DNA from: a virus
IMG/VR virus record: IMGVR_UViG_3300040801_002923
Span: 32,001 to 96,000 of that record
DNA length: 64,000 nt
Direction: 5' to 3' (one strand)
The position numbers and the translations under genes are program-made. Every line of letters starts with the position of its first letter. Position 1 is the first letter of the stretch. Shown one piece after another: positions 1 through 59,334 of the stretch. The notes beneath the pieces are model-generated. The model ran no database searches. It was not told where the DNA came from and saw only the letters and a program-made list of their open reading frames with translations.

Positions 1-54
1 GATTCGCATGAGCGCTACCTGCGCGCGATGGAGGTAGTTCATGCGAAGCCTTGA
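1..54 (+). CDS. 3' end of a hypothetical protein (partial), ends ...ERYLRAMEVVHAKP
   Basis: Frame 1 reads DSHERYLRAMEVVHAKP* to TGA at 52-54. It overlaps the next ORF and supplies its GGAGG SD. Confidence 0.6.
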   Translation, partial: DSHERYLRAMEVVHAKP

Positions 55-244
55 GGAGCTCGGTCAGCTCGAAAGTATGGACCAAATGACTGACGAAGAG
101 CGCGCTTGGGCTGAACAAGAAACACGCGAGTGGTTCGCAGCGATTGGGAAGCTATTCAATAACGATGAGCGCTCTCGATCAATCGATCTCTCGCCTAAAG
201 CGTTCGTGAAACACATAAGGACGAAAAATGAACAGCGAAGTTAA
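41..244 (+). CDS. hypothetical protein
   Basis: ORF with GGAGG SD, overlapping both neighbours. Confidence 0.7.
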   Translation: MRSLEELGQLESMDQMTDEERAWAEQETREWFAAIGKLFNNDERSRSIDLSPKAFVKHIRTKNEQRS

Positions 245-515
245 AAAGCTACCGAACGGTGACTTTGAAGTAGTGAACCCCATAAGCAAGATGAGTGATC
301 TGAGGTATTTTCAGTACAGGGTACAGAACGCCGCTGATCGTACATCTCGCGCGAAAGCTAAAAAGCAACAAGCACTGATGCAGGATGCCATCGAACTCTA
401 CCGCATCGCACGTCTTCCGGAAACAAATCCGTTTCTTGAGGAGCTCAAGCGAGCCGACCGCGCAATTGCTAACGAGCGCTATGAGCGCGCAATGATGGTG
501 GTGGACCGTGTCTGA
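228..515 (+). CDS. hypothetical protein with C-terminal ERYERAMMVV motif
   Basis: AGGA SD, coupled to neighbours. Confidence 0.75.
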   Translation: MNSEVKKLPNGDFEVVNPISKMSDLRYFQYRVQNAADRTSRAKAKKQQALMQDAIELYRIARLPETNPFLEELKRADRAIANERYERAMMVVDRV

Positions 516-795
516 AGATAACTGGGTCGATCCCAGCCTCGCCGAGGACTATATGTCAGCGCTGATCGCTGAGGTCAACAAATCTCGCAACGAGCAGCAC
601 ACCATCGATACAGGACGAGTCGAGATCGTAAAGTCCCTGGCCGATGCTCTGGCTGACGAAATCAGCAAACTTACAACGTTCGAGCTCACAGCTGTCACGA
701 AGAGCGATTGCTTCGCGGCGGTCATGCTCGCACACTCAGAACTTCATCGACGATTCGAGGAAGCCACAAATGTACTATACATCGGGAACGACTGA
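508..795 (+). CDS. hypothetical protein
   Basis: GTG start overlapping the upstream stop, GGTGG SD. Confidence 0.7.
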   Translation: MSEDNWVDPSLAEDYMSALIAEVNKSRNEQHTIDTGRVEIVKSLADALADEISKLTTFELTAVTKSDCFAAVMLAHSELHRRFEEATNVLYIGND

Positions 796-872
796 CCCAT
801 ATAAACGGAAAAATAAAAAGGGCGGAGATTGGGGTGACTTCGAGTCAAGTCTAATCGCCGAAGAGATCAACA

Positions 873-1493
873 ATGCCAAGCAGAAGCAAGACGAAAGGAA
901 ACAAGTTCGAGAACGACATCGTTAAGGCGTTCAACGACCTACACGAGACCGAAGAGTTTCGTCGCACACCAAACTCCGGTGCAATGATGGGACGCTCGAA
1001 TGCAGCGAAGTACGCAGGCCTCTCTGAGGGTGTGCAGCGCACACTGAGCTCGGACATCATCACGCCCGAATGGTATCCTTTCGCTATTGAGTGCAAGCAT
1101 TACGGCGACAAACCCAACTACGCCGCGATCATCAAAGAGAATGATACGAAACTAGATCATTGGTTAGCTGAAGCTGTTTTTGATGCTGTCAATCAAGACT
1201 TGCATCCGATGCTTTGCTTCAAGACTGACCGAAAAGGAGCTCACGTTGCAATCCCTCAGTACTGGATTAGCGAGCTTCAGATTTATCCGACGTACTATCT
1301 TCAATACGCCAACTCGTTCACAATCATGGGGCTCGAGCAATGGTTGCGCTTCGGTCCTTCGATGATCGAAGAGTCTGGTTATCGTGAGCAAACGCAGCTA
1401 AACAAGCTGACGTGGAAACGACTAGAAGAACTGCGAATGGGGTTCACCGACGTGCATAACGTTGCGGTGATGCTCCAACAACTAGAGAAGTAA
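873..1493 (+). CDS. Holliday junction resolvase (Hjc-like PD-(D/E)xK nuclease)
   Basis: SKTKGNKFE...FRRTPNSGA...SDII...IECK motif order, typical of phage/archaeal-type resolvases. Confidence 0.8.
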   Translation: MPSRSKTKGNKFENDIVKAFNDLHETEEFRRTPNSGAMMGRSNAAKYAGLSEGVQRTLSSDIITPEWYPFAIECKHYGDKPNYAAIIKENDTKLDHWLAEAVFDAVNQDLHPMLCFKTDRKGAHVAIPQYWISELQIYPTYYLQYANSFTIMGLEQWLRFGPSMIEESGYREQTQLNKLTWKRLEELRMGFTDVHNVAVMLQQLEK

Positions 1494-1860
1494 TACGGAC
1501 CGACTCCCCGGCTATTCAATTAGCGGGGTTGCGAAACTGGGTAGCGCCAGATAGGGCAGTGATGTCCTGGGATCCGTGAGCCTTGAAGCTGCTCGAAAGG
1601 TAACGCGTAAACCGCCCACACTACGAGGTGATGCCTGTAGTTCCATAGTAGTTGTGTGGGAAGCCAAAGGGTGACCGTTTCCTTCAGTACTCGAAGTGTG
1701 TCTGTAAAATAGGGTTTTAATGCGGTACCTCACCGTTAAAGTTTCCCGGTTCTCTGAACCAAAAACTGGGGGGAATTAGAACTGTGTCTGTATTAAGCAA
1801 ATTTTGAAAGACATCCGGATATGCGTATCAAGTGAACGAAGTGAACTGGTACGCATATCG
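1494..1860. ncRNA. putative large structured non-coding element (ncRNA or replication origin)
   Basis: ~370-nt gap without a credible ORF, containing at least 8 complementary helices, several with G-U pairs. Confidence 0.5.
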
Positions 1861-1871
1861 CGAAGCTACTG

Positions 1872-6911: not shown

Positions 6912-8570
6912 ATGGCTGATACACCAAAATTCAAGGGGTTCTACAAAGTAGTACAACCCTCTCCGGAGACTGCTAGACTCACCGACAGTCAATCCCTATC
7001 GGATGCTGGCATCTATGGTAACTACTCTTGGTACCAGAGACTAATCCAGGGATCCGGCTCTCGGATCACGCGATACCGTGAGTATGACCTCATGGATAAT
7101 GACGTTGACGTCTCGCGAGCTCTCGACACGATCGCCGAAGAGATATGCGGTAACGACGAGTACACCGACGAACCGCTGATCGTGAACGTTGTCGCTGAAG
7201 ATGACTCGATGATATCTGATACGGAAGTGTTTACACTCCGCACAGCTCTTCGATCTTGGATCGATCTACACAATCTGCGTACACGCCTGTTCAATATCGT
7301 GCGCATGACTATCAAGTATGGAGATGTATTTTTCCGTAAGCGCAAAGAGCACGGTGGTTGGGAATTCATTCATCCTAAGCACGTTGTTGGTGCCATCGTA
7401 GATCGCGAAGATATCACAAAGATTGTCGCGTGGCAGGTGCGTACGCAAATCAAGCACGCTAAGCAGACGTACGGCGTTGCTTTGACCTCTAGCAATGCAC
7501 AAGACGCTACAGAAATCATTCCTGTAAACGAAATCGTTCGGTTCTCGCTAAACGACGACATGTCCGATACCGCTCCTTTCGGTGAGTCGGTGCTCCGCCC
7601 TGTGTACCGCTCTCACAAGCAAAAGGAACTGCTCGAAGATTCTGTCGTCATCTATCGCATCCAACGTGCGCCCGAGCGCCGTGTATTTTACATCGATGTT
7701 GGTAAGATGCCACCGCAACGTACCAAGCAGTATCTCGAGCAGATTAAGAACGAGATCAAGCAGAAGAAGGTGCCAACGTTTAACGGTGGAACTAGCGAGG
7801 TTGACTCCGTGTATAACCCGCAGTCCATGTCTGAAGACTTCTTCTTCGCTCAGCGCGCAGACGGCCGCGGTTCCCGCGTAGATACGCTTCCTGGTGGAGC
7901 TGGTCTTGGCGAACTATCGGACCTCGAGTACTTTATGGACAAAGTACTCCGTGGTCTTCGTATTCCTTTGTCGTACATGTACCAGGATCAAGATCAACCA
8001 GGCGGTATCTTTAATGATGGTAGAACTGGTGTCGCTTACATTCAGGAGCTTCGCTTTGCCCTGTATGTTGAGCGTCTCCAGCGCTTCTTCGAAACAGTTC
8101 TTGACGTTGAGTTCAAGAAGTATCTGCGATTCTGTGGAATCATCATTAAAGATGAAGACTGGGAAGTCAAGCTACCCGCACCGCAGAACTTCGGTAAGTA
8201 TCGCCAGCAAGAGCTCGACGCCGCCCTACTCAACGGCTTTGCGCAGGCAGATCAGATTCCTTATCTGTCGAAGCGCTTTATCATGGAACGCTACCTGCAG
8301 CTTGAGGATGAGGAAATCATTCGCAACGAGCAGCTTCTCCGTGAAGAGAAAAATCTACCACCGGACGAGAAGAATCTTGATCCAGATCTTCAGCAGCTTT
8401 ACCGCCCCGAAGACGCAGCGATGGGTATGGAAGGTGACATGGGCGGTGGAGATCTCAGCGGGATGACAGCTGGAACACTTGGTGCTGACGACCCACTAGG
8501 TGGCGGTGACGCTGCGGGAGATGCCGACGGTGATACAGGTGCCGATGCAGCAGCAACCGCCGAAACATAA
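6912..8570 (+). CDS. gp20: portal vertex protein
   Basis: LLEDSVVIYRIQRAPERRVFYIDVGKMP, MSEDFFF, VDTLPGG and ELRFA are T4 gp20 signatures. TAAATA at 6878. Confidence 0.96.
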   Translation: MADTPKFKGFYKVVQPSPETARLTDSQSLSDAGIYGNYSWYQRLIQGSGSRITRYREYDLMDNDVDVSRALDTIAEEICGNDEYTDEPLIVNVVAEDDSMISDTEVFTLRTALRSWIDLHNLRTRLFNIVRMTIKYGDVFFRKRKEHGGWEFIHPKHVVGAIVDREDITKIVAWQVRTQIKHAKQTYGVALTSSNAQDATEIIPVNEIVRFSLNDDMSDTAPFGESVLRPVYRSHKQKELLEDSVVIYRIQRAPERRVFYIDVGKMPPQRTKQYLEQIKNEIKQKKVPTFNGGTSEVDSVYNPQSMSEDFFFAQRADGRGSRVDTLPGGAGLGELSDLEYFMDKVLRGLRIPLSYMYQDQDQPGGIFNDGRTGVAYIQELRFALYVERLQRFFETVLDVEFKKYLRFCGIIIKDEDWEVKLPAPQNFGKYRQQELDAALLNGFAQADQIPYLSKRFIMERYLQLEDEEIIRNEQLLREEKNLPPDEKNLDPDLQQLYRPEDAAMGMEGDMGGGDLSGMTAGTLGADDPLGGGDAAGDADGDTGADAAATAET

Positions 8571-13564: not shown

Positions 13565-13624
13565 CCCTCCCGGGAGTACCTCACCTCTATAAATACCTCC
13601 ACATTCGTGTGGAGGTATTTAAGT

Positions 13625-16621
13625 ATGGGTGTTTTCGATCCCCATGGTGATTCGCCGGAACGCATTCTTCGTGAAGGCGAGACAATCAGTCTCAAGGTAG
13701 AACGACTAACCGAGTCGACGGCACGGGTTAGCTGGAATATCCCAACGCCTGCAGATGGCTGCAATTCCAGTAACCAAGCGTACAACGGCATGGTTGTTGT
13801 TCTAAACACCGTCGCTAACAAACCAACTGATCGTCCAGTCAACGGCATCCGATACACTGCAGATCCAACTGGCAACGCAGACCTCCACGCCGGCGACCGC
13901 GTTGGTGACGCCCTCATTGTTGGTGCGTTCTACAACGACAAGACAACCAACTCGTTCACGATTACCGATCTTGTTGACGGCGCAGCGTACTTTATCACAG
14001 GTCACGCCGTCGATGCGCAAAATCGGTACCACGGCAACGGTGCTAGTGGTTACTCACTCCCGTTGACTCTGAACGAAAAGCAGCCTGACACACAGGCGTT
14101 CCACGAAATCACTCTAAGTGCAAGTGGTGCTGATATCATCGGTAGCGATGCTACCGAGCTTGTGGTCGGCGAGATCTACAATTTCTTCATTGTCATTGAC
14201 GGCGCTAAGCACGAAATTCTAATCGATGGTGGCGTCGCGCAGACATACGACGAGCTGGTGGCTGAAATCGACCGCCAGCTGCAGCAGATCGGTGGACCAT
14301 TTACAGGTCCTCTAGCCCCAAACACTGGCGGATATTTCTACAATTCAACAACCAATCAGCTGTTCCAGTGGGATGGCACTCAGAACGTTGAACTACCTGT
14401 AATCAATCACCCCACGGATCCTTCAGCTGTTGCAGCTGGTGATTTTTGGCTAGACAGCGACTCGGGGCTGAATGAGCTAAATCTTCGAGATGCGACAAAC
14501 ACGACCTGGAATATCCAGACTCCGCAGATTGAGACAGGGTATGATGTAACTAATCCGCCGTGCGATGCCTATTGGTACAACGATGGCCCATGCTTGATGT
14601 GGAAGTGGAACGGGTCCACGTGGTGTTCCAAGTCACCGGTGTTTGTACAAGAAACTGATCCATCGATACCACCTTTGCTGTCCTGTGGAACATACTGGCT
14701 GGATCAGGACGGCCAGTTGTTTGTGTGGAGTACTGTAAACGGGTGCAGTCAGTGGGTACAAGTCGAAGCAATCTCATGGGATCAAGCTCCTACACTGATC
14801 GTAAACGGTACATACTGGTTCAATGACAGTACAAATGAGCTCAATCTTCGCATTGGTGGAGCATGGGTTGTACAAACTGATGTGTTTGTACAGGATGAAC
14901 AGCCAATCACTAATATTGTCGGTGCACAATGGTACGTGCCGACAACAGGTCAGCTATTTGTACTGAACAATCAGGACATCTGGGAAGAGCAGCCTGTCCT
15001 AATCTTCGGTACAGATCCAACCTCTGTTGAATCGTGCGATCTTTGGTTTAACACTGCCAACGATCAGCTGTACACGTGGGATGCTGTTAACGGTGAGTGG
15101 GACCTCGTTGCGCAATTCTTCGATCAGGAAGCAGATCCGTCGGAGGCATCAGTCCTGGACGTCGGTGCAATCTGGGTCGATTCTGTAAACGAAACATATT
15201 ACGAATGGGATGGTGGTCAGTTCGTACTGATTAGCCAAGATACTCTAGTGGTGTGGCCGTCGGACCCAACGCAAATTCCGATTGATACAATATGGCTCCA
15301 AACCACATCGGGTGCGTACTTCCTGTGGGACGGCACGATGTGGAATATCATCGATCAGATTGTTGCTCCAAACGATCCGGCACTACCACAGCCCGGTGAT
15401 TTTTGGTTCAACACCTCGACGCAAATTCTCAACCAGTGGAATGGTGTCGCATGGATTCCGGTTGCCTACAGTAGCACACCATTAGCTCCAGCTGTTGGTG
15501 ATGTGTGGTACAGCACGGTAGATCAAACGCTTCTTACATGGAACGGTTCAGAGTGGGTGCAAGCTGATCGACAGGTCACCATAGCACTCAATCAATCAGA
15601 ACCGGCAGCAAACATCTGCGAACCTGACAGCAACATTGTTTTCACTCGTACTGCAGCTGGCAGTGAGAGATCCGTACGGATCGGCCAACAAACCGCCACA
15701 GCGTTTGCAACCAACTTCCCGACAGTTCAGTACCAGTTCGAGGGCACTCTGTTTAACAGCCTTGGGGCAACAGCTTCCCTAAAGCCTCCTGTGTTGGGTG
15801 GCGACGGACTCGAGGCTACGCCGATGTACGAGCAATTGGGTGTCGGCACTGACGGTACTCCCGACGAGCGCCGAGAGTTGGCTGACAGTATTCGCCGCCA
15901 GCTTGGCTATCCAACAATTGAAATCGAGTTAGACACGCGTCAGCTGGACGAAGCAATTCAGAGCGCTATCGAAGAGTTGCGCCTTCGAAGTTCTTCGGCG
16001 GTTCGTCGTGTGTACTTCATGATGGATTTGCAACCAGGCAAGCAGCGTTATGTCATGACTAGCAAAGCAACTGGATTCAATACGATTGTCAGTATCATGG
16101 GGATCTGGCGCGTAACATCAGCTTTCCAAAGCACCGCCTATGCATCGGGAGTGTACGGCCAGACAGTACTCCAGCACCTGTACCACATGGGTACGTTTGA
16201 TTTGGTGAGCTACCACCTGATATCGCAGTACATCGAGGAGCTCGAGCAGCTATTCGCAACCCGCGTAACATACACGTTTGACGAGGCGCGCCGGCAGCTT
16301 GACATTTTCCAATCTGTGACTCGACAAGAACGAGTATTGCTCGATGCTGTTGTTGAGCGCACAGAACAAGAGCTTCTGACCAATCGTTATACGAAGAACT
16401 GGATCGAGCGCTGGGCTCTGGCACAGGCGCAGCTTACTCTCGCATCAATTCGAGGTAAGTTTGCAACTCTACCTGGCGCCGGTGGTGGTGTATCGCTGAA
16501 TGCGGCTGACCTGGAAAACCTCGCTCGCGAGAACATTCAATGGTGCCTCGATGACATCGACAACTTTGTTGTGAACGATATCGAAAACCTAGGCATCGGT
16601 TCGGAGTTGATCATTGGCTAA
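13625..16621 (+). CDS. gp13: neck protein gp13 with a long N-terminal repeat extension
   Basis: C-terminal ~250 aa (IRRQLGYPTIEIEL...RGKFATLPGAGGGVSLNA) is gp13-like. N-terminal region has Trp-rich repeats. GGAGG SD before ATG 13625. Confidence 0.8.
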   Translation: MGVFDPHGDSPERILREGETISLKVERLTESTARVSWNIPTPADGCNSSNQAYNGMVVVLNTVANKPTDRPVNGIRYTADPTGNADLHAGDRVGDALIVGAFYNDKTTNSFTITDLVDGAAYFITGHAVDAQNRYHGNGASGYSLPLTLNEKQPDTQAFHEITLSASGADIIGSDATELVVGEIYNFFIVIDGAKHEILIDGGVAQTYDELVAEIDRQLQQIGGPFTGPLAPNTGGYFYNSTTNQLFQWDGTQNVELPVINHPTDPSAVAAGDFWLDSDSGLNELNLRDATNTTWNIQTPQIETGYDVTNPPCDAYWYNDGPCLMWKWNGSTWCSKSPVFVQETDPSIPPLLSCGTYWLDQDGQLFVWSTVNGCSQWVQVEAISWDQAPTLIVNGTYWFNDSTNELNLRIGGAWVVQTDVFVQDEQPITNIVGAQWYVPTTGQLFVLNNQDIWEEQPVLIFGTDPTSVESCDLWFNTANDQLYTWDAVNGEWDLVAQFFDQEADPSEASVLDVGAIWVDSVNETYYEWDGGQFVLISQDTLVVWPSDPTQIPIDTIWLQTTSGAYFLWDGTMWNIIDQIVAPNDPALPQPGDFWFNTSTQILNQWNGVAWIPVAYSSTPLAPAVGDVWYSTVDQTLLTWNGSEWVQADRQVTIALNQSEPAANICEPDSNIVFTRTAAGSERSVRIGQQTATAFATNFPTVQYQFEGTLFNSLGATASLKPPVLGGDGLEATPMYEQLGVGTDGTPDERRELADSIRRQLGYPTIEIELDTRQLDEAIQSAIEELRLRSSSAVRRVYFMMDLQPGKQRYVMTSKATGFNTIVSIMGIWRVTSAFQSTAYASGVYGQTVLQHLYHMGTFDLVSYHLISQYIEELEQLFATRVTYTFDEARRQLDIFQSVTRQERVLLDAVVERTEQELLTNRYTKNWIERWALAQAQLTLASIRGKFATLPGAGGGVSLNAADLENLARENIQWCLDDIDNFVVNDIENLGIGSELIIG

Positions 16622-19104: not shown

Positions 19105-21897
19105 ATGGCTCTAGTTAGTGCAGGTGTAGAAGTTACGATCATCGATGAGAGTTTCTTCGTCCCAGCTCAGGCTGCAACAGTACCGCTGATCTTCGTAGCT
19201 ACGGCTGACGAAAAGACACAGCCAGATGGTACTACACCAGCCGCTGGTACGTATGAAAGCAACGTCGTCCGCACCGTGACCTCTCTTAACCAAAGTCAGG
19301 CACTTTATGGTAACCCACGATTCCTCGAGGATTCTAGTGGAAACCAGCAACATGGCGATGCTCGTAATGAATATGGACTGCTCGCGCTTAACTCATTCCT
19401 CGGCGTCGGTAACCTCGCGTACGTAGTACGTGCAAACGTTAACCTCAACGATGACCTTGAGGACATCCGCGCAATCTGGGATCGCAAGATGGAAGAAGCA
19501 GCGATTGTTCTCGAAGCAAACGTTACGTCGTTTATCACAGAATACAACGAAGTGAACAACCTGGTTCCTTCAAACCCGAACTTCAAGATCACGGTAACTA
19601 AAGACGAGTTCCTCTCTTTGGCTCGCGAATCGACAGATCCTGTGTTTGCTGCGTTCTCCTTCCAGAACTCCGAAGAAAACTTCTACGATGACAACACAAC
19701 GCCTGTATCTGCGACGGCTGGTTACCAAGTCATCGACATGGACGGATCGGTAAACCAAGGTCAGCAATTCCTAGACTTTGGGGGTTCGATCGCTTCCGCA
19801 TCCCAAGTAATCAACGTTGGTGGTACGATTTCTGGTGCTTCCGCAACAGGACTTGCGCCCGACGCTACAGTTTACGATTTCCGCGTGTTTGTCGAAGGCA
19901 CACTGAACACCATTCAAGTAACTGGATCCAATGCGCAGACGTACGCAGACCTCATCACAGAGATCAATGCTGACCTAACAGGGGCAACAGCTGAACTACT
20001 CGGCGGCAATGTGCGTATCATCTCTGATGATACTTCAGCGACGTCCTCTATTAGTGTTACTGAAGGTACTCTAACAGATCCTCTACTGGCCGCGTTGACG
20101 GACTTCGTTGGCATCGAATCAGCTACGAAGAACGGTGCAAACCCAACCGGACTGCTCGACGACTCGACCTCGTATACGGTAAACGTTGCAGTGAATGGTG
20201 GAGCTCCACAAGCACTAACCGTTCAGGGGCAAAATGCACAAACGTTTGGTGAGCTGGTAGTTCAACTCAACTCGCTGCTAACCGGCGGCACGGTTGAACT
20301 GTTTGAAGACGGTAACATCCGCATCTTCTCATCACTATCTGACGCGTCGTTGTCAGCCATTGCGACAACCGACACTACGCTGCTGGCTGCTCTATCAGGC
20401 TTTGTTGCAGCCGTACCAGCGACAAACAACATCACAAATCCAACGGGTCTGCCTAACACAGGCACACTGTTGCAAGCGACGGTCACAGTTGATGGTGTCC
20501 CTAACTCCGTGCAGATTGCTGGTAACGCAGCTCAAACTTTCGGAACGCTGGTTGCTGAGCTTAACACCGACCTCGGCCCAGTGGCGACGGCGGCAATCGG
20601 CGATGGTGTTACGACAACAAACGGCTACGTTGTTCCAAACGGTCAGCTCGCAATTGTCAGTGCAACCACAGGCGCGGCATCTACGGTTTCTATCGCCGAT
20701 GTGAACATCTTCTCAGGCCTTCGCGGCTTTGTTACGCTGGAGACGCCGGTTGTTGGTCTACCAGCAAACGCAAACCTGCAGGTGTTCGGTAATGGCTACG
20801 ATCAGCCATCAACAGGTACGTACCTTGGGCTGGAAGGTATCGCATCCGAGTGGGAAAACAACGCCCTCGGTTCTCTGGTTGCGGGTGAGTTTACCGCCGA
20901 AGAGGCTGCTGCTACACTTCTAGCAGCAGCCGACGATTACAAGTTCACGGTTGAGTTCCTAAACGAAACAAGCCTTGGTGCAAACGACGCAGCGCGTCGT
21001 GTTGCAATCACAACAGCGCTGCAGGCTTCAATCAACAGCAACACGGAAGTTCGATCCGAGAACTTCGAATTCAACCTGATTCTCTGCCCAGGATATCACG
21101 AATGTGTAGATGAGCTGATTGCTCTGTCCGTTGATATCAACGAAGAAGCTTTTGTCATCGCTGACACCCCAGTCAACCTTGGCGCCGACGAGGTTGTGAA
21201 CTGGTCTGCAACCACGCAGCGATTCCGCTCTCCGGGTGTGGCTTACTACTACCCGTGGGCTCTGCAGTCGAATCTTGACGGTACAAACGTGGTGGGAGCG
21301 CCTTCCGGTGTAGCCCTGCGTACGTATGCATTCAGCGACAACACTGCTGAGCTATGGTTTGCACCAGCTGGTACACGCCGCGGACTGGTTTCAGGCGTGT
21401 CGCGTCTCGGCCACGTTCGCGGAACGCTTGGCACCGCAACCACATTTGTTGAGACAAACCTGAACCAAGGTCAGCGCGACAACATGTACAAAGATCTGAC
21501 AAACCTGAACCCTATTGCGTTCTTTGTTGGTCGTGGGTTCGTGATCTGGGGTCAGAAAACGTCTTCACCAGACATCAGTGCACGCAACCGTGTAAACGTT
21601 GAGCGTCTGCTTCGCTTCATGAAACGTCAGTTCCGTAAGAGTCTGCTGTCGTTTGTGTTCGAGCCAAACGATACGCTCACACGGGACAACGTCAAGGCTC
21701 TGGCTGATAACTTCCTCGGCGATCTCGTTGTTCGTCGAGCACTGTTCGACTTCGCTACGGTGTGTGATGAGTCCAACAACACACCAGACCGTATCGATCG
21801 TAACGAGCTGTATCTTGATATCGCAATCAAGCCTACGCGCGCCGCAGAATTCATCTTCGTGCCAATTCGTGTAGTTGCAACGGATGCAGATATCTAA
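19105..21897 (+). CDS. gp18: tail sheath protein with three inserted ~100-aa repeats
   Basis: LVSAGVEVTIIDES, WFAPAGTRRG, WGQKT, RVNVERL, FVFEPND, IKPTRAAEFI. Confidence 0.96.
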   Translation: MALVSAGVEVTIIDESFFVPAQAATVPLIFVATADEKTQPDGTTPAAGTYESNVVRTVTSLNQSQALYGNPRFLEDSSGNQQHGDARNEYGLLALNSFLGVGNLAYVVRANVNLNDDLEDIRAIWDRKMEEAAIVLEANVTSFITEYNEVNNLVPSNPNFKITVTKDEFLSLARESTDPVFAAFSFQNSEENFYDDNTTPVSATAGYQVIDMDGSVNQGQQFLDFGGSIASASQVINVGGTISGASATGLAPDATVYDFRVFVEGTLNTIQVTGSNAQTYADLITEINADLTGATAELLGGNVRIISDDTSATSSISVTEGTLTDPLLAALTDFVGIESATKNGANPTGLLDDSTSYTVNVAVNGGAPQALTVQGQNAQTFGELVVQLNSLLTGGTVELFEDGNIRIFSSLSDASLSAIATTDTTLLAALSGFVAAVPATNNITNPTGLPNTGTLLQATVTVDGVPNSVQIAGNAAQTFGTLVAELNTDLGPVATAAIGDGVTTTNGYVVPNGQLAIVSATTGAASTVSIADVNIFSGLRGFVTLETPVVGLPANANLQVFGNGYDQPSTGTYLGLEGIASEWENNALGSLVAGEFTAEEAAATLLAAADDYKFTVEFLNETSLGANDAARRVAITTALQASINSNTEVRSENFEFNLILCPGYHECVDELIALSVDINEEAFVIADTPVNLGADEVVNWSATTQRFRSPGVAYYYPWALQSNLDGTNVVGAPSGVALRTYAFSDNTAELWFAPAGTRRGLVSGVSRLGHVRGTLGTATTFVETNLNQGQRDNMYKDLTNLNPIAFFVGRGFVIWGQKTSSPDISARNRVNVERLLRFMKRQFRKSLLSFVFEPNDTLTRDNVKALADNFLGDLVVRRALFDFATVCDESNNTPDRIDRNELYLDIAIKPTRAAEFIFVPIRVVATDADI

Positions 21898-26346: not shown

Positions 26347-26550
26347 ATGGCTGACCCTAGATATCGATGGCGCGTTGACATCTTCGAATATGAGCGTGGG
26401 TGGGGCAGACGTCACGAAGGCGCGAAGTTTTTCGACGATGAAAACGAAGCGTACCAATTTGTCCGAGACTACAATTCTGAAAACACAGAAACGGTAGTCC
26501 CTGATTGGTATATGGCTGCTTCTGCCCCCCAAAAGGTGCAGGTGGCCTAG
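26347..26550 (+). CDS. small hypothetical protein
   Basis: AGGAGG SD; EYERGWG and VPDWY motifs. Confidence 0.75.
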   Translation: MADPRYRWRVDIFEYERGWGRRHEGAKFFDDENEAYQFVRDYNSENTETVVPDWYMAASAPQKVQVA

Positions 26551-31340: not shown

Positions 31341-31586
31341 ATGAGCATGTTTTCCCTTCTTTCGGGTCTAGATCGAGACGCTAAAGCTGCAGCGGCGCTC
31401 GACCCCAATGCACCCAGTATCACATATCAGCAGTACGATATTCCGGTGAGCGGTGAGGAGACATGTGTCCTTATTCCAGAGCGAGAATGTAATAACTTTG
31501 AGAACGCCGTGATAGAAGCCGGTGAGCTCTCACAAATCAAACTGAAGAAGCTGGTGAGGGAACACCGCGGCATCTTCTCACAATAA
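31341..31586 (+). CDS. hypothetical late protein
   Basis: TAAATA at 31300, GGAG SD. Confidence 0.65.
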   Translation: MSMFSLLSGLDRDAKAAAALDPNAPSITYQQYDIPVSGEETCVLIPERECNNFENAVIEAGELSQIKLKKLVREHRGIFSQ

Positions 31587-31600
31587 CCATAAGGTAGAAT

Positions 31601-32089
31601 ATGTCAGGAGTAGTCCTACTAAGACCAGTTGGTGGCGGCGGATCAGGAACGTCAAATATCACGATCAGTACGATTAACGGCCAGCTGGTACCTACATTTC
31701 AGGACACCACACGTTCAAAGCAGCTTAGCGTTACAGATCACCCAGTTGTGTGGTCTGAAAATAGGCTACGCGACCGCGATTGGCTAAATATTGGTAATGC
31801 CGTCGATGCTGTGAGTGGTTATATTGCTGACCTCAATGGAACAATTGTGAGTGCCGTTGCACAATGTGAGAGCACAGGAGTTGCGGAAAAGGAAATCCAC
31901 GTGTTCGTAAATGGCACAGATCAGGGAAGTTTGGGTATTTTAGGTCCGGGAACTGGAGTGACCTTTATAAATACATCAACAGACATTGACTTTAACCAAG
32001 GCGACTTGATTCGCCTCCGTGCCCTGGATGGCGTTTCGGGCCAGATTGAAGACACGGTGGTTAAACTCACACTAAAGTGGCGAGCTTAA
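31601..32089 (+). CDS. fibre-tip-like structural protein; stand-alone paralogue of the next gene's C-terminus
   Basis: PVVWSENR..DW..IGNAVDA.SGY...IEDTVV...LKWR is shared with the end of 32104-34953. Confidence 0.75.
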   Translation: MSGVVLLRPVGGGGSGTSNITISTINGQLVPTFQDTTRSKQLSVTDHPVVWSENRLRDRDWLNIGNAVDAVSGYIADLNGTIVSAVAQCESTGVAEKEIHVFVNGTDQGSLGILGPGTGVTFINTSTDIDFNQGDLIRLRALDGVSGQIEDTVVKLTLKWRA

Positions 32090-32103: not shown

Positions 32104-34953
32104 ATGAGTTTTATCGTTCGTAACCTAACAGGTTCGGCAATCGCGATTGACGATCTGGGGTTGACAATCCCGGCATCAGCTGACCTGGACATCACATCCG
32201 AGCAACCACAAGACGTTGCTCTATCTGACGACCTTGTAGCTGCCATTCAAGCGAACAGCGTCGCTGTTCTAGATCCACTCGATGGAACTACCCCACTAAA
32301 CGCGGCACGAAGTGAAGAGATCGTTCGTGTTCACAACGATCCGCACTATCGGATCCGAGGTGGTACTCTAGATCAGCTCGAAGATGTTGATCTGACTGGT
32401 GCAGCACAAGACTTCGTGCTGCAGCAAAACGGTGCAGGCACGTTCGTTCCCGTATCTCCTTCATCGCTTGCTTCGAACATTAATCTCGACGACCTCGGTG
32501 ATGTTGATGACGCAACGCCACACACTCTCGACACAATTTATGTGTTCAAGGGTGATGGCACAAACCTCGATGTCGTTGACGCAACAGCTGATCCAGAATT
32601 TGGTGAGGTTATCGAAGACATTATTGGTGCAGCATTCCAGAATGGTACTGACACCACTTTTGTGTATGACGATGGGAATGGTACTCTTCAGGTAGACGTT
32701 GATGACGTATTCCTACGCAACACAGGCGATACACTCGACAGCGGCACGCTAACAATCGCTTCTGGTGCAGCAATCAACGTAGCGACGGGCGGCACGCTTA
32801 CAATCCAAGACGATCCCGTTAACCCCAAGGATGCGGCTAACAAGGAGTACGTTGACAGCGTAGCATCAGGTCTCGATCCAAAAGAATCCGTACGAGTCGC
32901 AACGACGCCAGTAGGCGGTGACATTGGTGGTACATATAACTCTGCTGGTGGTACAGGCGGTACGGGTAACTTCACCGGTGTCGACCTTACCTCCGATGCG
33001 ATTTTCGACGGTGTGCCATCAGGCGTCGGCGCTCTCCAGGTCGGCGACCGTATTCTCATCAAAAACCAGACTGACAGCACACAGAACGGTATCTACGTTG
33101 TAACCGTTGCTGGGGCAGCTGGCTCTATCGAACGTGCTCCGGACCACGACGCCTCTCCTTCTAACGAAGTGTCTGGTGGTAACTTCACGTTCGTTGAGAA
33201 CGGTACCGTTAACGCGGGCACAGGTTGGGTATTGCAGGGCGACGGCGAACAAACACTGAACACAGATCCGATCACATGGGCGCAGTTCAGCGAAAGTACA
33301 ACATTGAACGCCGGGGAAGGTCTGTCGCAGAGTGGTAGCACAATTGATCTCGATATCGACGACCTAACCGTTGCTTCAATCGTAGATACAGACTTCCTTG
33401 CGTTTCACGATGGCAACGGAGCAGCACAGCCATCCGGTTCTCAAACATACAAGATTACAGCAGCTGACTTTATTGCTGATCTGGGTATTCTCACCGGTGG
33501 TCCAGGTGGCGCTCTAACAGCGTCTGATGGTGTCCTGATCACAGCTGGTAATGACATCCAGCTTGACATCACTAGCCTCGCCAACACGCCTGTAACAGCT
33601 GCTGATGAGCTGGTATTTGACGATGGTGCTTCAGGCTCTCACATCAAGCGTACGGCTGGTGACTTCCTTAACGACTTGGACGTTGTACGCAATCTGGGTG
33701 GTAACGGTATTGCTGTACAAACGGCGCCTGACACATATACGGCACGCTCAATCGCAGTTGATGGTCTTGGCAACCTAGACGGTCTTGCCGTTACAAACGG
33801 TGACGGTGTTGCTGGTAACCCTACACTCGGCCTCGACATCCAGAACCTGCCAATTCAAACGGGCATTTCCACAGTTGACCGAGTTGCTGTTTACGACGTA
33901 ACTGCCGATGCAAACGTCTACTACACAGTTGGCGACATCGCTGGTGCTCTTGCAAACGTCAACTCTTTTGAAACATGGTCCGCAGCTGGTAACACGACAG
34001 GTGATGCGAGCATCGTTGCCGACGACGCGACCGATACAGTAACACTGACTGGTGGCACGGGTATCAACATCGATTTCAATTCCGCGTCTGATACGCTGGT
34101 ATTTGACTTCGACGTCGCCCTACTGACAGCTGGTACAGGTCCTCTTACGCTTTCGGATCAGATTGTTGTACTCGACGGTACAGATAATCTGCGCTTCACA
34201 CTGCAGGATCTGGTTGACGATCTCGACATCGTTAACGGTATCGCGGCTGACGGTATTCTGGTCCGCACAGCAGCTGATACATACGCTTCTCGCACGATCG
34301 AAGCTTCCGCCGCAGCTGGCGAAGAAGGTCTAACGGTAACAAACGGCGACGGTGTTGCTGGTAACCCAACAGTCGGCCTAGATATCGACAACCTGGCTGA
34401 CAGCGCCGACGATCTAGCGGCAACTGATGAGCTTGTTGCATTCGATGGCACGAACAATGTTTCGATGTCTGGTCAGCAGGTTGCTGACGGTGTATCAACA
34501 ATTCTGGGTCTAGGCGGATTGACGGTAACAACAATCGGCGGCCAGGAAGTCCTAACACTCGAAGATACAACACGAGCAAACAAAGTGCTTTCGATTGAGA
34601 CAACGCCAGTTGTATGGTCTGAAAACCGCATCACCAACAACGATTGGATGAGTATCGGTAACGCCGTTGACGCCGACAGTGGATATGTTCTTCCTCTCAA
34701 CGCAACAATTGTTAAGGTGTCGATGCACACAGCAGACGACAATAACAACTCGAAGGGCATCGATCTTTACATCGACGGTGTGAATAACGGTAACATCGCT
34801 GCGTTCACAGCTGTGAACGGTGAAAACGAAGTTACCGACGTTACTCTCAACATCGATGTCAACGCTGGCCAGAAGATTCGTCTACGCGGCGATGCAGCCG
34901 GTGGTGTAATTGAGGACACTGTAGTTACCGTATGGCTCAAGTGGAGAGGCTAA
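32104..34953 (+). CDS. long fibre / virion structural protein
   Basis: DAANKEYVD, GLDPKESVRVAT...GDRILIKNQT...QNGIYVV fibre module, and duplicated TNGDGVAGNPTxGLDI repeats. Confidence 0.8.
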   Translation: MSFIVRNLTGSAIAIDDLGLTIPASADLDITSEQPQDVALSDDLVAAIQANSVAVLDPLDGTTPLNAARSEEIVRVHNDPHYRIRGGTLDQLEDVDLTGAAQDFVLQQNGAGTFVPVSPSSLASNINLDDLGDVDDATPHTLDTIYVFKGDGTNLDVVDATADPEFGEVIEDIIGAAFQNGTDTTFVYDDGNGTLQVDVDDVFLRNTGDTLDSGTLTIASGAAINVATGGTLTIQDDPVNPKDAANKEYVDSVASGLDPKESVRVATTPVGGDIGGTYNSAGGTGGTGNFTGVDLTSDAIFDGVPSGVGALQVGDRILIKNQTDSTQNGIYVVTVAGAAGSIERAPDHDASPSNEVSGGNFTFVENGTVNAGTGWVLQGDGEQTLNTDPITWAQFSESTTLNAGEGLSQSGSTIDLDIDDLTVASIVDTDFLAFHDGNGAAQPSGSQTYKITAADFIADLGILTGGPGGALTASDGVLITAGNDIQLDITSLANTPVTAADELVFDDGASGSHIKRTAGDFLNDLDVVRNLGGNGIAVQTAPDTYTARSIAVDGLGNLDGLAVTNGDGVAGNPTLGLDIQNLPIQTGISTVDRVAVYDVTADANVYYTVGDIAGALANVNSFETWSAAGNTTGDASIVADDATDTVTLTGGTGINIDFNSASDTLVFDFDVALLTAGTGPLTLSDQIVVLDGTDNLRFTLQDLVDDLDIVNGIAADGILVRTAADTYASRTIEASAAAGEEGLTVTNGDGVAGNPTVGLDIDNLADSADDLAATDELVAFDGTNNVSMSGQQVADGVSTILGLGGLTVTTIGGQEVLTLEDTTRANKVLSIETTPVVWSENRITNNDWMSIGNAVDADSGYVLPLNATIVKVSMHTADDNNNSKGIDLYIDGVNNGNIAAFTAVNGENEVTDVTLNIDVNAGQKIRLRGDAAGGVIEDTVVTVWLKWRG

Positions 34954-54047: not shown

Positions 54048-54478
54048 TGGCCAGTAAAGTAGAGAAGCTAAAAGCTCTGCTTGAGGCACTAGATCTCATG
54101 CAGGAAGAAGAGGAGTGGACGCCCACACCCAAGCAGTGGAAGCGCATTCGCTCGCTAATTGAGGACCTCGATGAAGAAGCACCAGCACCAGCAGCTGAAG
54201 CACCAGTACGTTTCGTAGGTGCAGATCGAGCAGGATCTGGGGCACGGCCAGCTGGTCGATCGAATCCCTGGGCCGATGGTACCGCTCGTATGCCAGAAGT
54301 ACCATCCGCGATTCCCGAAGGAGCAGAGCGCTTGGCACCAACGGGCACATCTGCACTAGCCCCCCAGGGGTCTGCGCTAAGACCACAGGGAGGTGTTGCC
54401 AACCCAAATCAACCTATCGGAATGTTAGAGGATGGCACACCTGTACACGATTCCCATCCAGGAAGCCCTGGACTGTAA
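54047..54478 (+). CDS. hypothetical protein
   Basis: TAATG coupling, AGGAG SD; PTPKQWKRIR motif. Confidence 0.7.
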   Translation: MASKVEKLKALLEALDLMQEEEEWTPTPKQWKRIRSLIEDLDEEAPAPAAEAPVRFVGADRAGSGARPAGRSNPWADGTARMPEVPSAIPEGAERLAPTGTSALAPQGSALRPQGGVANPNQPIGMLEDGTPVHDSHPGSPGL

Positions 54479-55010
54479 CCTATTCACGGAGCTAAAGGAC
54501 CGTGTCCTGTTTTTCGACGGCGATATGGTTGTTCCCTCATCAGAAGTAACAAAGTTTCTCAAATTAGCCAGCACTGGCAAACTCTGCGTTACCGAAACGA
54601 CGCCAGATATAGAGATGTTTAATTCAGTGTCTGACGTGCCGATCAGGCAGAAAGAAGATGTCACAATACCTGATCTCGCGTGGAATCTTCCTGACCCCTG
54701 GAACAGCCTGGATGTCGAAGCGTACATATATGAGCGCTTCGAAGAAGAGCTGCAGAATGATTCAACTGTGGCTGTAAATGCTAAAGTGTATCTGAAGAGA
54801 GTTGAAGAAGAGATTGAGGCCTATCGGGACCTTAAACTCTACGCGCTGCTCCGGGCAGTCATATATACGGTAAGTACACTTCGTAGCTATAATGTCGTGT
54901 GGGGAGTTGGTAGAGGAAGTAGCGTATCTAGCTACGTATTGTATTTAGTCGGAGTACATGACGTAGATAGCGTTTTCTTCGAACTAGACTACACCGACTT
55001 CCTACGCTAA
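54432..55010 (+). CDS. stand-alone DNA polymerase III alpha (DnaE)-like fragment
   Basis: YLKRVEEE...VWGVGRGSSVSSYVLYLVGVHDVD...FLR matches the DnaE GxGRGS segment. Confidence 0.8.
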   Translation: MAHLYTIPIQEALDCNLFTELKDRVLFFDGDMVVPSSEVTKFLKLASTGKLCVTETTPDIEMFNSVSDVPIRQKEDVTIPDLAWNLPDPWNSLDVEAYIYERFEEELQNDSTVAVNAKVYLKRVEEEIEAYRDLKLYALLRAVIYTVSTLRSYNVVWGVGRGSSVSSYVLYLVGVHDVDSVFFELDYTDFLR

Positions 55011-55386: not shown

Positions 55387-55707
55387 ATGGATACAACAGT
55401 TTTTGACGAGATTGAGGTACTAGACGGATTTATCCTTTTCCAATTTGAAGAGGAGATTGATCCGAGTCGCCACAACGCCTTTACGGAGAAGACACAATCA
55501 GGTATCATTCTGCCGTCTAACCCACTTACCGCAGGTCAATATGCTCGGTGGGCTACTGTTGTAGCTGTTGGTCCAAATGTTCCAGAAGACGTAGTGCCTG
55601 GATCAAAAGTCTGCATCGAAGCTCTAAAGTGGACGAAGGTCAGCACATACAAAGGCGAAGAGTTCGCACGAACTGAAGCCAAGTTTATTCTTGCCGTGGG
55701 AGAATAA
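55387..55707 (+). CDS. groES: GroES-like co-chaperonin
   Basis: EKTQSGIILP mobile loop, ATVVAVGP, PGSKV, terminal ILAV. Confidence 0.85.
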   Translation: MDTTVFDEIEVLDGFILFQFEEEIDPSRHNAFTEKTQSGIILPSNPLTAGQYARWATVVAVGPNVPEDVVPGSKVCIEALKWTKVSTYKGEEFARTEAKFILAVGE

Positions 55708-57071: not shown

Positions 57072-57097
57072 CACCCGATACGCTACCCGACTATAAT
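57068..57097 (+). promoter_or_regulatory. consensus sigma70 promoter
   Basis: TTGACA-18 nt-TATAAT. Confidence 0.8.
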
Positions 57098-57127
57098 CAG
57101 CTGATAACAATAAGGAGAAACAGCTGA

Positions 57128-58051
57128 ATGCCGGGTGCTCACGCTCTGTGGGTCGAGAAGTATAGACCCACCACGCTAGACGGATACATCTTCCACGACG
57201 AGTCGCACAAGCGTGCTTTTGTGCGAATGGTTGCAGATCGCAGTATTCCACATCTCCTACTCACAGGAATTCAAGGTGCTGGTAAAACAACGATTGCACG
57301 CATACTGATCAACGAACTCGAAGTAGACGAACTTGATGTTCTATACATCAACGCCTCCGAAGAGAACTCAGTCGACACCATTCGCGACAAGATCAAAAGC
57401 TTCGTCTCCACCTTTGCTCTCGGTGATTTCAAAGTCATTCTACTTGACGAGGCCGACTTCATTACACTGAACGGTCAAGCGATTCTCCGCAACCTAATGG
57501 AAGCGTACAACGAGACTACCCGCTTCATTCTTACGTGCAACTACGAGCACAAGATCATGCCGCAGATTGTATCGCGGTGTCAGCATTTTCGCTTCAAAGC
57601 AGGTAACCGCGACGATATCACTGAGTACGTAGCTCAAATCCTCATACAAGAAGGGGTAAAGTTCGATCTGGATACACTGGACCGTTACATCAGCCTTGCA
57701 TATCCGGACGTCCGTAAGATCGTCAACTCACTTCAGCAGAATGTATACGAGGGCGCTCTTCATGACCCGATTGGTATGGCTGATTCTGGCGACTACAAGC
57801 TAGAGTTGCTGGGGAAGATTGAGGCAGGCGATTGGCACGGCGCGCGCGAAATTTGTTGCGGGGCCGTGGTAGCTGAGGAATGGGAAGACGTATATAGGTT
57901 CATTTACGAAAATGCACACAAGGCGTTTAAGGATCAGGCTAAGTGGGAAGCTGCAATCGTCGTTGTAGCAGAGCACTTGTACAAACATGGTATATGCGCC
58001 GATCCAGAGATCAACGCGGCGGCGATGTTTATTTCGCTGTCGACAATTTAG
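57128..58051 (+). CDS. gp44: clamp loader AAA+ subunit
   Basis: LWVEKYRP, GIQGAGKTT, INAS, LDEAD, FILTCN, SRC, PDVRK. Confidence 0.95.
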   Translation: MPGAHALWVEKYRPTTLDGYIFHDESHKRAFVRMVADRSIPHLLLTGIQGAGKTTIARILINELEVDELDVLYINASEENSVDTIRDKIKSFVSTFALGDFKVILLDEADFITLNGQAILRNLMEAYNETTRFILTCNYEHKIMPQIVSRCQHFRFKAGNRDDITEYVAQILIQEGVKFDLDTLDRYISLAYPDVRKIVNSLQQNVYEGALHDPIGMADSGDYKLELLGKIEAGDWHGAREICCGAVVAEEWEDVYRFIYENAHKAFKDQAKWEAAIVVVAEHLYKHGICADPEINAAAMFISLSTI

Positions 58052-58060
58052 GAGTCTAAA

Positions 58061-58822
58061 ATGAAATTACCGGCACAAACGTTACAAACTTGTAGCGTTA
58101 AAATTAGTCATACAGGTACGCATGAAATTACAGCTTCAATTGAGTACAATGTAGCAGAATCGCGCCACCCGACGGAGAACGACTACGCAACGTTGTATGT
58201 TAATGGTCAAGTTGTAGCATCTAATTGCGCATCGAAGGTATCTGATAAGGAGTGGTTCTGCGGCGTGGCAGACGGAGACCGGCGCGTGATGGAAGCCGGT
58301 TTCATCTTGCCGTTTCAAGACGGGGATATCGTAGAAGTACATTTTCACGATTCCGAGATGAAACAACTAAGTTACGTCCATACATTTGACATCACCGCGC
58401 AATCAATCTTCGAAATTGATTCCATCGAAGATTCCCAATCGCAGGCAGATGATGGTGCAATTACCTTCTGTGATGCTAGTCTGGGATCGAATGCTAACAT
58501 TGCTCTCAGTACAATCGACTCGGGGTTGCTTGCGAACGGTTCAATCTCGATTGCCGAAACGTTCGACCGTCACAAGCTACGGTTCTTTGATGGTAGTCAA
58601 GATATCATGTCGATCAATACGATGACAGGTGAGATCGAATTCCACACTGAGCCGTCGGAAGCGGCACGCAAGGCGTGGGAAATCATGGCTACAGCGTACT
58701 CAGAAATGTTCCCACCAATGAGCGCAACACTTGATGTCGACAAAGAAGCTCGCGAGGAGCTGATCGCACAATTGGAAACCAACGACGCTCGGTTTGAGCG
58801 AGCAATGAGGATTGTAGAATGA
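58061..58822 (+). CDS. hypothetical protein with C-terminal ARFERAMRIVE
   Basis: AGGAG SD; coupled to the next gene. Confidence 0.75.
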   Translation: MKLPAQTLQTCSVKISHTGTHEITASIEYNVAESRHPTENDYATLYVNGQVVASNCASKVSDKEWFCGVADGDRRVMEAGFILPFQDGDIVEVHFHDSEMKQLSYVHTFDITAQSIFEIDSIEDSQSQADDGAITFCDASLGSNANIALSTIDSGLLANGSISIAETFDRHKLRFFDGSQDIMSINTMTGEIEFHTEPSEAARKAWEIMATAYSEMFPPMSATLDVDKEAREELIAQLETNDARFERAMRIVE

Positions 58823-59334
58823 ACTGCAGAGACGCCGACAATCTAATCCGCATCAAGGAAGGAGACCCTGACTGGAAGCTTTATTGTGCTGTCGATGTTC
58901 CTTATTGTCCTGATGAAAAGCTACGCGAACGGGTAGATGCTTCCGCAGCGCTACAAACGGATATGCTGTACTCAGGCACGCTATGGAAACTCAAGGCCGC
59001 TAGACCTAACTGTACGATCTGGAATCGTGTTAGTGACTGGGTTGCCCCCGCCGTTACGCAGTACAATCCTGAAGGCCGATACGGAGGAATGCGAACCAGA
59101 CTAACGTTCCACTTCGGCGGTGACCACTATAGAGCGGGCATATATGCGGCCCGAGTCAGCTGGATTGACGATGAAACGGGTCTAGCTGCTCCAATTGGAA
59201 AACCTAGATTGATTGGCAAGGCACGTGTTGAAGCCGGTCCTCCTGTGCGAGCTGAGTCAATTCGCGATATGAATAGGTACATTCATGAACTGCTCACTGC
59301 AGAACGATACAAGTATGCCATGGAGATTGTATGA
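58819..59334 (+). CDS. hypothetical protein with C-terminal ERYKYAMEIV
   Basis: ATGA overlap. Confidence 0.75.
   Translation: MNCRDADNLIRIKEGDPDWKLYCAVDVPYCPDEKLRERVDASAALQTDMLYSGTLWKLKAARPNCTIWNRVSDWVAPAVTQYNPEGRYGGMRTRLTFHFGGDHYRAGIYAARVSWIDDETGLAAPIGKPRLIGKARVEAGPPVRAESIRDMNRYIHELLTAERYKYAMEIV

Follow-up and report, generated by a model that had tools for sequence, protein, structure and literature searches.

A shared C-terminal peptide on variable small proteins of an uncultured T4-related phage clade, some of which resemble pieces of portal, sheath, and terminase

We analyzed a 64,000-nucleotide stretch of viral DNA from IMG/VR record IMGVR_UViG_3300040801_002923 (hereafter, the window), focusing on a short peptide, which we call the tag, that recurs at the C termini of small proteins encoded in two distant parts of the stretch. 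The window comprises bases 32001 to 96000 of a phage contig of 118,481 bp with 50% G+C. Judging from matches to PHROGs and Pfam, the phage is a distant relative of T4. Its T4-type genes include a gp55-like late sigma factor, gp46/47, a gp32-like single-stranded-DNA-binding protein, UvsX/Y/W, and the clamp loader gp44/62, and the same databases recognized T4-type structural genes for the portal, prohead protease, major head protein, sheath, tube, and baseplate wedge. Based on the helicase, the closest named relatives are jumbo phages of Xanthomonas and Stenotrophomonas, which share just 41 to 43% identity with it. Genes were called genome-wide with our own codon-usage heuristic, which yielded 109 genes and 37,584 amino acids.

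Four tagged proteins, all encoded on the plus strand, lie wholly or partly in the window. At its left edge, positions 1 to 54 (17 codons plus the stop) are the end of a 60-amino-acid (aa) protein that begins upstream (genome 31872-32054) and terminates in ERYLRAMEVVHAKP, with the tag core Y-L-R-A-M-E-V-V at window 16-39. The next carrier, a 95-aa protein at 228-515, ends in ERYERAMMVVDRV and has its core, Y-E-R-A-M-M-V-V, at 480-503. Far to the right, directly after gp44, a 253-aa protein (58061-58822) ends in ARFERAMRIVE, with the core F-E-R-A-M-R-I-V at 58793-58816, and is followed by a 171-aa protein (58819-59334) whose body is an ORFan and whose final residues are ERYKYAMEIV, with the core Y-K-Y-A-M-E-I-V at 59308-59331 ending at the stop codon. 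All four of these C-terminal peptides, which had been cited in an initial annotation of the sequence, are present where it placed them. Two additional carriers were found directly upstream of the window, at genome 31235-31465 (76 aa, ending in DAYDRAMKGI) and 31465-31872 (135 aa, ending in TSYERAMRALV). Together with the 60-aa protein and the protein at 228-515, they form a single row.

Within this genome, the tag is a feature of protein ends. The pattern [YF].[RY]AM matched six times in the whole proteome, in every case within the last 12 residues of a protein, and the bare tripeptide RAM occurred six times, five of them in the last 10 residues. We also scanned the proteome with a position-specific scoring matrix (PSSM) trained solely on 30 tags from other phages. 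At a threshold of at least 12 bits, it recovered exactly the six sites, which scored 16.2 to 30.3 bits and were located 8 to 12 aa from the C-terminal end; the next-best site (10.9 bits) is internal in UvsX. Shuffled proteomes contained a mean of 0.155 matches at this threshold, with a maximum of two (200 shuffles). Enrichment at C termini, which had been proposed as a check on the motif, was thus observed both here (6 of 6) and in a six-frame scan of relatives (22 of 24; see below). A weaker fifth case had also been suggested, namely the peptide RRFEEATNVL, 14 aa from the end of another 95-aa protein (508-795, plus strand). The peptide is present, scoring less than 3.5 bits, and because it was absent from the 16 best PSSM scores, we did not accept this protein as a carrier. 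An internal RYREAM in the capsid protein, which we considered as a possible counterpart of the tag, is not conserved in a relative's capsid protein, and the likeness was therefore treated as chance.

Relatives were represented by 48 loci from IMG/VR (cited as L plus a number), which were recruited with the clamp loader and helicase. Most of them are contig fragments, and the absence of the tag from any one contig therefore means little. Tag counts were taken from a six-frame scan of all stop-to-stop frames of at least 30 aa (608,944 residues). There were 24 matches to [YFW].[RK]AM with a hydrophobic residue after it, and 22 of these fell within 20 residues of a stop. All except one of the terminal matches were on the gene strand in real-looking genes; the remaining one, in a 43-aa minus-strand frame, is probably due to chance. 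When a narrower DNA pattern was applied to all of IMG/VR, it matched 23 times in 20 loci, and 12 of the matches lay no more than 20 codons from a stop. Seven of the 12 were in contigs of this clade, two were in frames of 13 and 23 aa, and three were in loci that blastx did not link to the clade by any match (L066, L069, and L072). A looser DNA pattern returned no matches in three jumbo relatives, one of which is rated 100% complete.

Removal of duplicates and doubtful outsiders left 36 nonredundant tags in 13 contigs. For comparisons of the protein bodies, 40 candidate carriers were picked from the relatives and this genome with a loose pattern within approximately 20 residues of the C terminus, a procedure that admitted a few variants (e.g., FERARRALG). 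The consensus of the tags is [DET]-[ARDN]-[YF]-[ED]-R-A-M-x-[IVG]-[VIL], followed by zero to seven more residues, and the accepted copies are located 8 to 15 residues from the C terminus. One 324-aa protein (L019:5174-6148) contains the tag twice, once 247 aa from its end (NYYERAMNIV) and once at the end itself (DDYDRAMAFLE), and resembles two fused tagged genes.

The codons of the tag indicate what is being conserved. Across the 36 tags, information is concentrated in the first two positions of the codons; the third positions have 0.07 to 0.5 bit, a figure that excludes the Y/F and Met codons, which are fixed by the genetic code. Arginine in the tag is encoded by AGA (11), CGC (7), CGT (7), CGA (5), AGG (1), and CGG (1), and alanine by all four of its codons. 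Orthologues in G000 and L006 show synonymous differences within the tag, and codons differ among the copies, as had been claimed. Since information resides in the first two codon positions and six arginine codons are used, selection acts on the peptide and not on a Shine-Dalgarno (SD) or other RNA signal. Translation signals do lie close by. The x position is purine rich (first base A in 20, G in 14, and T in 2 of the 36 tags) and falls 8 to 14 nucleotides (nt) before the next start in this genome's six copies, and the codons that follow the tag often spell out the next gene's SD (e.g., GGAGGA or AAGGAG). In about two-thirds of the tagged genes, the next ATG overlaps the stop codon or lies within 4 nt after it. 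Behind several tagged genes, however, there are 25 to 40 nt and no coupled start, and any SD lies downstream of the Y-[DE]-R-A-M core; together, these points argue that the core is a protein-level motif. The initial annotation had cautioned that part of the motif coincides with the SD of the coupled downstream gene. That caution holds for the x position and the trailing residues, which we take to be a compromise with translational coupling, but does not extend to the core: SD and overlap constraints do not fully account for the motif, given that conservation is bound to the reading frame and that some tagged genes are uncoupled. On this codon evidence, the tag is a short linear motif kept by selection at the protein level.

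Tagged genes are found in a small number of recurrent genomic positions. The first slot is directly after gp46, where L024 has a run of five tagged genes, L015 has three or four, and L013 has two. The second slot lies between gp44 and a conserved gene of 96 to 114 aa that precedes gp62, and is occupied in the window, L001, L063, and L076, with two to three tagged genes each in L063 and L076. Its left border in the window is a gp44-like clamp-loader large subunit (57128-58051, plus strand; Pfam AAA and DNA_pol3_delta2), and gp44 is also the left border in the other three loci. On the right, the slot is bounded by the conserved 96-aa protein (59331-59621) and the gp62-like small subunit (59614-60093; phrog_225), both on the plus strand and both with orthologues in L001, L063, and L076. 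A third slot, before a conserved gene of approximately 450 aa, was seen in two contigs.

What fills these slots varies greatly. The 253-aa and 171-aa proteins of the window and the 208-aa and 88-aa proteins in the same slot of L001 have the tag alone in common, and an all-against-all BLAST of 30 tag-stripped carriers produced only a few small families. Such comparisons uphold the view that the carriers are mostly unrelated to each other. In aligned carriers, the residues before the tag are polar and variable. A C-terminal helix had been anticipated for the tag, and the prediction agrees: in the AlphaFold2 (AF2) model of one carrier (L076:1942-2349), the tag is helical, following a less confident polar linker in which the predicted local distance difference test (pLDDT) score dips to 62 to 66 ahead of the tag helix.

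Because the L076 locus matched this phage's sheath in a blastx search, we compared the carrier bodies with the phage's own proteins. The tail sheath gene (19105-21897, plus strand; phrog_10581) is the template for one group of bodies. Four carriers of 114 to 145 aa (L004:382-771, L005:5543-5980, L019:6152-6496, and L076:1942-2349) align to the last ~110 residues of the sheath, followed by about ten residues and then the tag, with PHROGs E values down to 1e-23. Against Pfam PF17482 (Phage_sheath_1C; gathering cutoff, 26.9 bits), three of the four scored 35.0 (L019:6152-6496), 34.4 (L076:1942-2349), and 31.3 bits (L004:382-771), and L005:5543-5980 scored 22.8 bits, below the cutoff. The AF2 model of L076:1942-2349 (pLDDT, 78; predicted template modeling score, 0.73) places the tag in a terminal helix at residues 118 to 134. 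In Foldseek, this model matched best to the Klebsiella phage KP1 sheath and to T4 gp18, and next to further contractile sheaths. Three further tagged sheath pieces (P0007, P0008, and P0106) were found in a large protein database.

Other bodies point to the portal and the terminase. Residues 82 to 147 of L001:6927-7553 match residues 294 to 357 of the portal (hhalign probability, 95.2%; E = 2.7e-8), and the same protein matches Pfam PF07230 (Portal_T4) with 33.1 bits against a cutoff of 22.9, over 63 of 433 profile positions. The portal gene itself (6912-8570, plus strand; phrog_213), which aligns to T4 gp20, would be the source fold of the portal-type bodies. According to PHROGs and Pfam, L019:6999-7670 is a copy of the N-terminal ATPase domain of the large terminase (TerL), which this phage encodes at 24737-26290 on the plus strand. 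L076:2538-3116 bears a weak resemblance to a 1,004-aa protein at window 13607-16621. In total, eight of the 40 carriers bear pieces of the phage's own core genes, one of them weakly. As a control, this phage's portal, sheath, and TerL were used as queries: 6 of the 40 tagged proteins were matched, compared with 0 of 446 untagged ones of 60 to 250 aa from the same loci. The description of the carriers as unrelated client proteins must therefore be amended: most are indeed unrelated to each other, but they are not a random set, since some copy the best-conserved parts of sheath, portal, or TerL in re-coded form. We placed the portal pieces on T4 gp20 by alignment, with the domain limits of Sun et al. 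2015 (PMC4493910). The regions so identified are, first, stem helix alpha5 and the first strand of the clip and, second, the clip's end, the channel loop, and stem helix alpha7. Together they make up a conserved region that faces outward and docks the packaging ATPase and the neck, for which the portal clip is the docking site (PMC4493910).

Two of the carriers in the window also resemble core proteins. The 60-aa protein aligned with the end of the tagged sheath pieces (hhalign probability, 85.7%; E = 5.5e-6, tag included), and its body without the tag outscored all 2,000 shuffles against a tag-free sheath profile. An orthologue in L006 retains the tag. The body is probably a copy of the last beta-strands of the tail-sheath C-terminal domain; we call the match only probable because the family was chosen after a borderline Smith-Waterman score. 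In the protein at 228-515, residues 21 to 70 (window 288-437) matched portal residues 216 to 260 when compared with a profile of 12 portals (hhalign probability, 79.9%; E = 1.4e-5). This protein has no Pfam or PHROG match, yet it fits the clade's portal profile. In phmmer searches it matched 16 portals of relatives, and its Smith-Waterman score to the portal (64) was above all 60 shuffles, the sole match in the whole proteome to beat all shuffles. Residues 2 to 32 (window 231-323) matched portal residues 320 to 345 weakly and in swapped order (BLAST E = 0.021). From these alignments, residues 21 to 70 appear to copy portal stem helix alpha5 and the first clip strand, and there is a weak indication that residues 2 to 32 are a copy of the clip's end, the channel loop, and the beginning of alpha7.

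Searches with the remaining bodies were less informative. Neither Pfam nor PHROGs assigned a family to the window's tagged proteins at an E value of 0.01 or below. In Smith-Waterman comparisons with shuffles against the whole proteome, the 135-, 171-, and 253-aa bodies gave nothing significant, and the 76- and 60-aa proteins were borderline. The borderline match of the 76-aa protein (E = 0.01) is to an untagged 162-aa protein at window 31601-32089. That untagged protein (plus strand) itself copies part of the next protein, which has 949 aa (32104-34953, plus strand; phmmer E = 3e-30), and both end in IEDTVV..LKWR. When 5.8e9 proteins were searched with the 171-aa and 253-aa proteins, only the two proteins themselves were returned. 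For the 253-aa protein, an exhaustive search brought up a single homologue, which is tagged (P0119, ending in TAYERAMRVVEK), along with two repeat-protein matches that we judged to be compositional, and L063 has a partial homologue. At E values up to 10, the 253-aa protein matched a "minor tail protein" weakly (E = 0.015). Residues 3 to 117 give a weak hint of a C1q-like tail-fiber tip, with C1q-like look-alikes in the ESM Atlas on a low-confidence model. The AF2 single-sequence model was poor (pLDDT, 37.8), and an hhalign comparison with the phage's own tail-fiber tips fell in the expected register without reaching significance (probability, 2.6%). Residues 190 to 251 (window 58640-58816) matched the repeats of an NB-ARC/tetratricopeptide repeat (TPR) protein in seven stretches (phmmer E = 2.8e-6), and the tag is similar by eye to the second TPR helix (Y-E-K-A-L-E-I). 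We rejected the idea that the tag is a TPR half-repeat, as none of 12 forty-residue tails matched any TPR family at an E value of 10 or below. For the 171-aa protein, the ESM Atlas yielded weak tail-tube look-alikes (TM score, 0.37 to 0.45; model pLDDT, 0.37); for neither this protein nor the 253-aa one did it give feature matches that could be used.

The timing of expression was approached through promoter-like sequences. The late-promoter-like words TATAAATA and CTAAATA occur 12 to 54 nt before many structural genes, with copies in the window at 9541, 12120, 13588, 18239, 22643, 23770, 28680, 34978, and 60767. Across the whole genome, neither word is found ahead of the tagged clusters, which sit in operons with gp55-gp47-gp46 and gp44-gp62. 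Given the missing late-promoter-like words and the replication-operon neighbors, the tagged proteins are likely to be expressed early or in the middle of infection.

Several other genes of this phage deserve mention. Between the terminase and a polynucleotide-kinase-like gene is a gene for a 327-aa SbtA-type Na+-dependent bicarbonate transporter (26505-27488, plus strand; Pfam Sbt_1, E = 7e-105). It may be an auxiliary metabolic gene and hints that the host could be autotrophic; the literature searched for SbtA in phages held nothing relevant. The genome also encodes an Fe/Mn superoxide dismutase (genome 106273-106869; L010:10873-11469), a FolE2-type GTP cyclohydrolase I (genome 104087-105178; L010:8687-9778), and two GroES/Cpn10-like proteins (window 55387-55707, plus strand, and L010:10592-10876). 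Three tandem paralogues of approximately 430 to 450 aa (60799-62103, 62100-63455, and 63455-64750, plus strand), whose C-terminal domains end in EIDILRDLS or similar, are probably tail-fiber tips, and CTAAATA lies 32 nt before the first of them. PHROGs recognized a family-B DNA polymerase in separate, distant pieces (window 54432-55010, plus strand; L010:4244-4819; L010:14931-15629). The phage has a clamp loader, but neither Pfam nor PHROGs recognized a sliding clamp.

Within the reach of sequence analysis, the idea of a common C-terminal docking tag is supported. What the tagged proteins may do is suggested by work on host defense. One report describes STAND-type (signal transduction ATPases with numerous domains) sensors as widespread in hosts and as binding newly made terminase, portal, capsid, tube, and other core proteins, and its authors mention that the tail sheath might be another target (PMC13581612). 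We therefore favor, while giving it somewhat less than an even chance, a reading in which the tagged proteins are early mimics that are docked on a common partner and act as decoys for host sensors. The carriers are fast-changing small proteins occupying two or three variable slots in the replication operons of an uncultured T4-related clade. In each carrier, the variable body would serve as a bait that mimics a core phage protein, and the constant tail, carried on a short polar linker, would be a handle by which all baits dock to one common partner. The baits would engage immune sensors of core proteins before the true virion proteins appear, and the engaged sensors would then be blocked, sequestered, or disposed of. 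A more specific version, which we consider doubtful, holds that the clade maintains a renewable library of early mimics (of the portal stem and clip, the sheath handshake domain, the terminase ATPase, and probably others) in which the bait captures a pattern-recognition sensor of the host, Avs-like or other, and the handle brings the two together to one machine, of the phage or of the host, that inactivates or destroys the sensor.

A number of observations weigh against the decoy reading. For 32 of the 40 carriers, the origin of the body was not traced; in this genome, that is the case for the 135-, 171-, and 253-aa bodies, and the match of the 76-aa protein is only borderline. Of the two matches in the window, one involves the post hoc choice of a family for the 60-aa protein and the other a modest hhalign probability (79.9%) for the protein at 228-515. 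Bait and tag are not strictly linked either, since L083 has an untagged sheath-like small ORF and a 379-aa protein (L018:2821-3960) contains a piece of portal residues 237 to 352 (E = 5e-17) with a tag-like NPYRTAMEEI, in which the motif-like YRTAM is 36 aa before the end. Early expression is suggested by promoter-like words and gene neighbors, the common docking partner of the handle is putative, and the gene calls are heuristic.

The explanations that would make the tag something other than a working peptide are hard to reconcile with its codons. If it were a nucleotide-level signal read as protein (an SD, a translational operator, or a start-associated sequence), the purine-rich x position at 8 to 14 nt before the next start in the six copies here would be expected, but the three-base periodicity in the frame of the upstream gene, the varying distance to the next start, the occasional absence of a coupled start, and the position of the Y-[DE]-R-A core upstream of any SD leave this scarcely credible. 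Nor do we give much weight to the tag being a relic, in which bodies were captured before one old 3' gene end that was kept for the next gene's translation signals. A relic would account for the tight coupling of most tagged genes to the following start, for the frequent encoding of the next SD just behind the tag, and for the presence, among the bodies, of pieces captured from genes of the same genome. Yet conservation is at the amino acid level with randomized wobble bases and both arginine codon families, the tag is kept across phages whose helicases are just 43 to 72% identical, and several tagged genes have 25 to 40 nt and no coupled start after them, which makes this account highly improbable.

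Two further explanations accept the tag as a peptide and assign it another purpose. The tag could be a degradation signal by which a host or phage protease removes the early pieces of portal, sheath, and terminase ahead of late gene expression, in which case the tag would play no part in the action of the bodies. The succession of domain, flexible linker, and short C-terminal tail is also the layout of protease adaptor and degron tails, and fragments of the phage's own assembly proteins could poison assembly and plausibly need removal. However, the tag is followed by zero to seven variable residues and L019:5174-6148 has one of its two copies 247 aa from the end, so a free carboxylate beside the motif is not required; Pfam and PHROGs recognized no protease in the genome besides the prohead protease; and to our knowledge the Y-[DE]-R-A-M core fits no known degron. 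We consider a degron unlikely. Alternatively, the fragments might act on phage assembly itself, as dominant-negative proteins, as chaperones, or by sabotaging a coinfecting related phage, with the tag specifying location or partner. The copied parts are interaction surfaces, among them the portal clip on which the packaging ATPase and neck dock (PMC4493910), and the C-terminal domain of the sheath is the conserved core common to all contractile sheaths. But the carriers are a hypervariable set with many ORFans, and even close relatives have different ones in the same slot, a pattern that an arms race fits better than a core assembly role, and they are encoded in replication operons that lack late-promoter-like sites. 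An action on assembly thus strikes us as rather more unlikely than a degron.

Parts of the proposed decoy arrangement have parallels in known systems. In T4, the capsid targeting sequence (CTS) is an N-terminal peptide on IPI, IPII, IPIII, and Alt, which are virion components, and is cut off by the prohead protease. Like the CTS and the polymorphic internal-protein locus, the tagged genes combine a short constant terminal peptide with unrelated, fast-changing carriers in a variable slot, with the peptide as a putative address for one partner. Unlike the CTS, the tag is C-terminal, its carriers are encoded in replication operons without late-promoter-like sites, and some of them are copies of core proteins. 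The site of the prohead protease is hydrophobic-x-Glu; among 32 aligned carriers, position +8 is occupied by Glu in 7 and by Asp in 4, and a cut there would remove only zero to seven residues. Adaptors of the SspB type end in a ClpX-binding (XB) tail. They and the carriers share an architecture in which a flexible linker joins a variable binding domain to a short, conserved C-terminal tail with two aliphatic residues, which would dock cargo on one machine. The conserved core here, Y-[DE]-R-A-M, is not known to match the XB sequence. Cluster K mycobacteriophages have start-associated sequences, a nucleotide motif just upstream of many starts that overlaps the ends of upstream genes. These resemble the tag in being a repeated motif at gene ends beside coupled starts, overlapping the SD, but here it is the peptide that is conserved and third positions are free. 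T4 gp43, gp55, and gp33 have C-terminal tails that bind the sliding clamp and thus, like the tag in our reading, represent a short C-terminal peptide common to different proteins and docking on one hub. As an explanation of the tag, a clamp-binding tail was rejected: the gp55-like factor and the polymerase pieces do not have it, and the PSSM gave no further matches. One polymerase piece ends in a different hydrophobic-acidic tail. A last parallel comes from Bodo saltans virus, for which Deeg et al. 2018 (PMC5871332) describe ankyrin-repeat ORFs with fragments of essential genes, proposed to be decoys that mimic targets of host defense. Both cases feature fragments of a virus's own essential genes on a common module in a rapidly expanding gene set, and a decoy action is proposed in both. 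They differ in that Bodo saltans virus is a eukaryotic giant virus with a large ankyrin-repeat module, whereas here a phage uses an eight-residue tail.

In the literature that we searched, we found no paper on a shared C-terminal motif of phage early proteins or on decoys against Avs sensors, and a system of baits with a common handle looks to be undescribed. Tagged mimics of the very proteins that such sensors recognize, if our favored reading is true, would be a new class of counter-defense. Were the more specific version with delivery to a single machine true, it would be a bacterial-virus counterpart of targeted protein degradation. The eight-residue tail would also serve as a sequence rule by which genes of this kind could be recognized in uncultured phages, among early genes annotated as hypothetical. 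Should the decoy idea prove wrong, a docking tag that is present throughout the clade would still imply a hub protein in the biology of T4-like phages, one that can be sought with a defined peptide.

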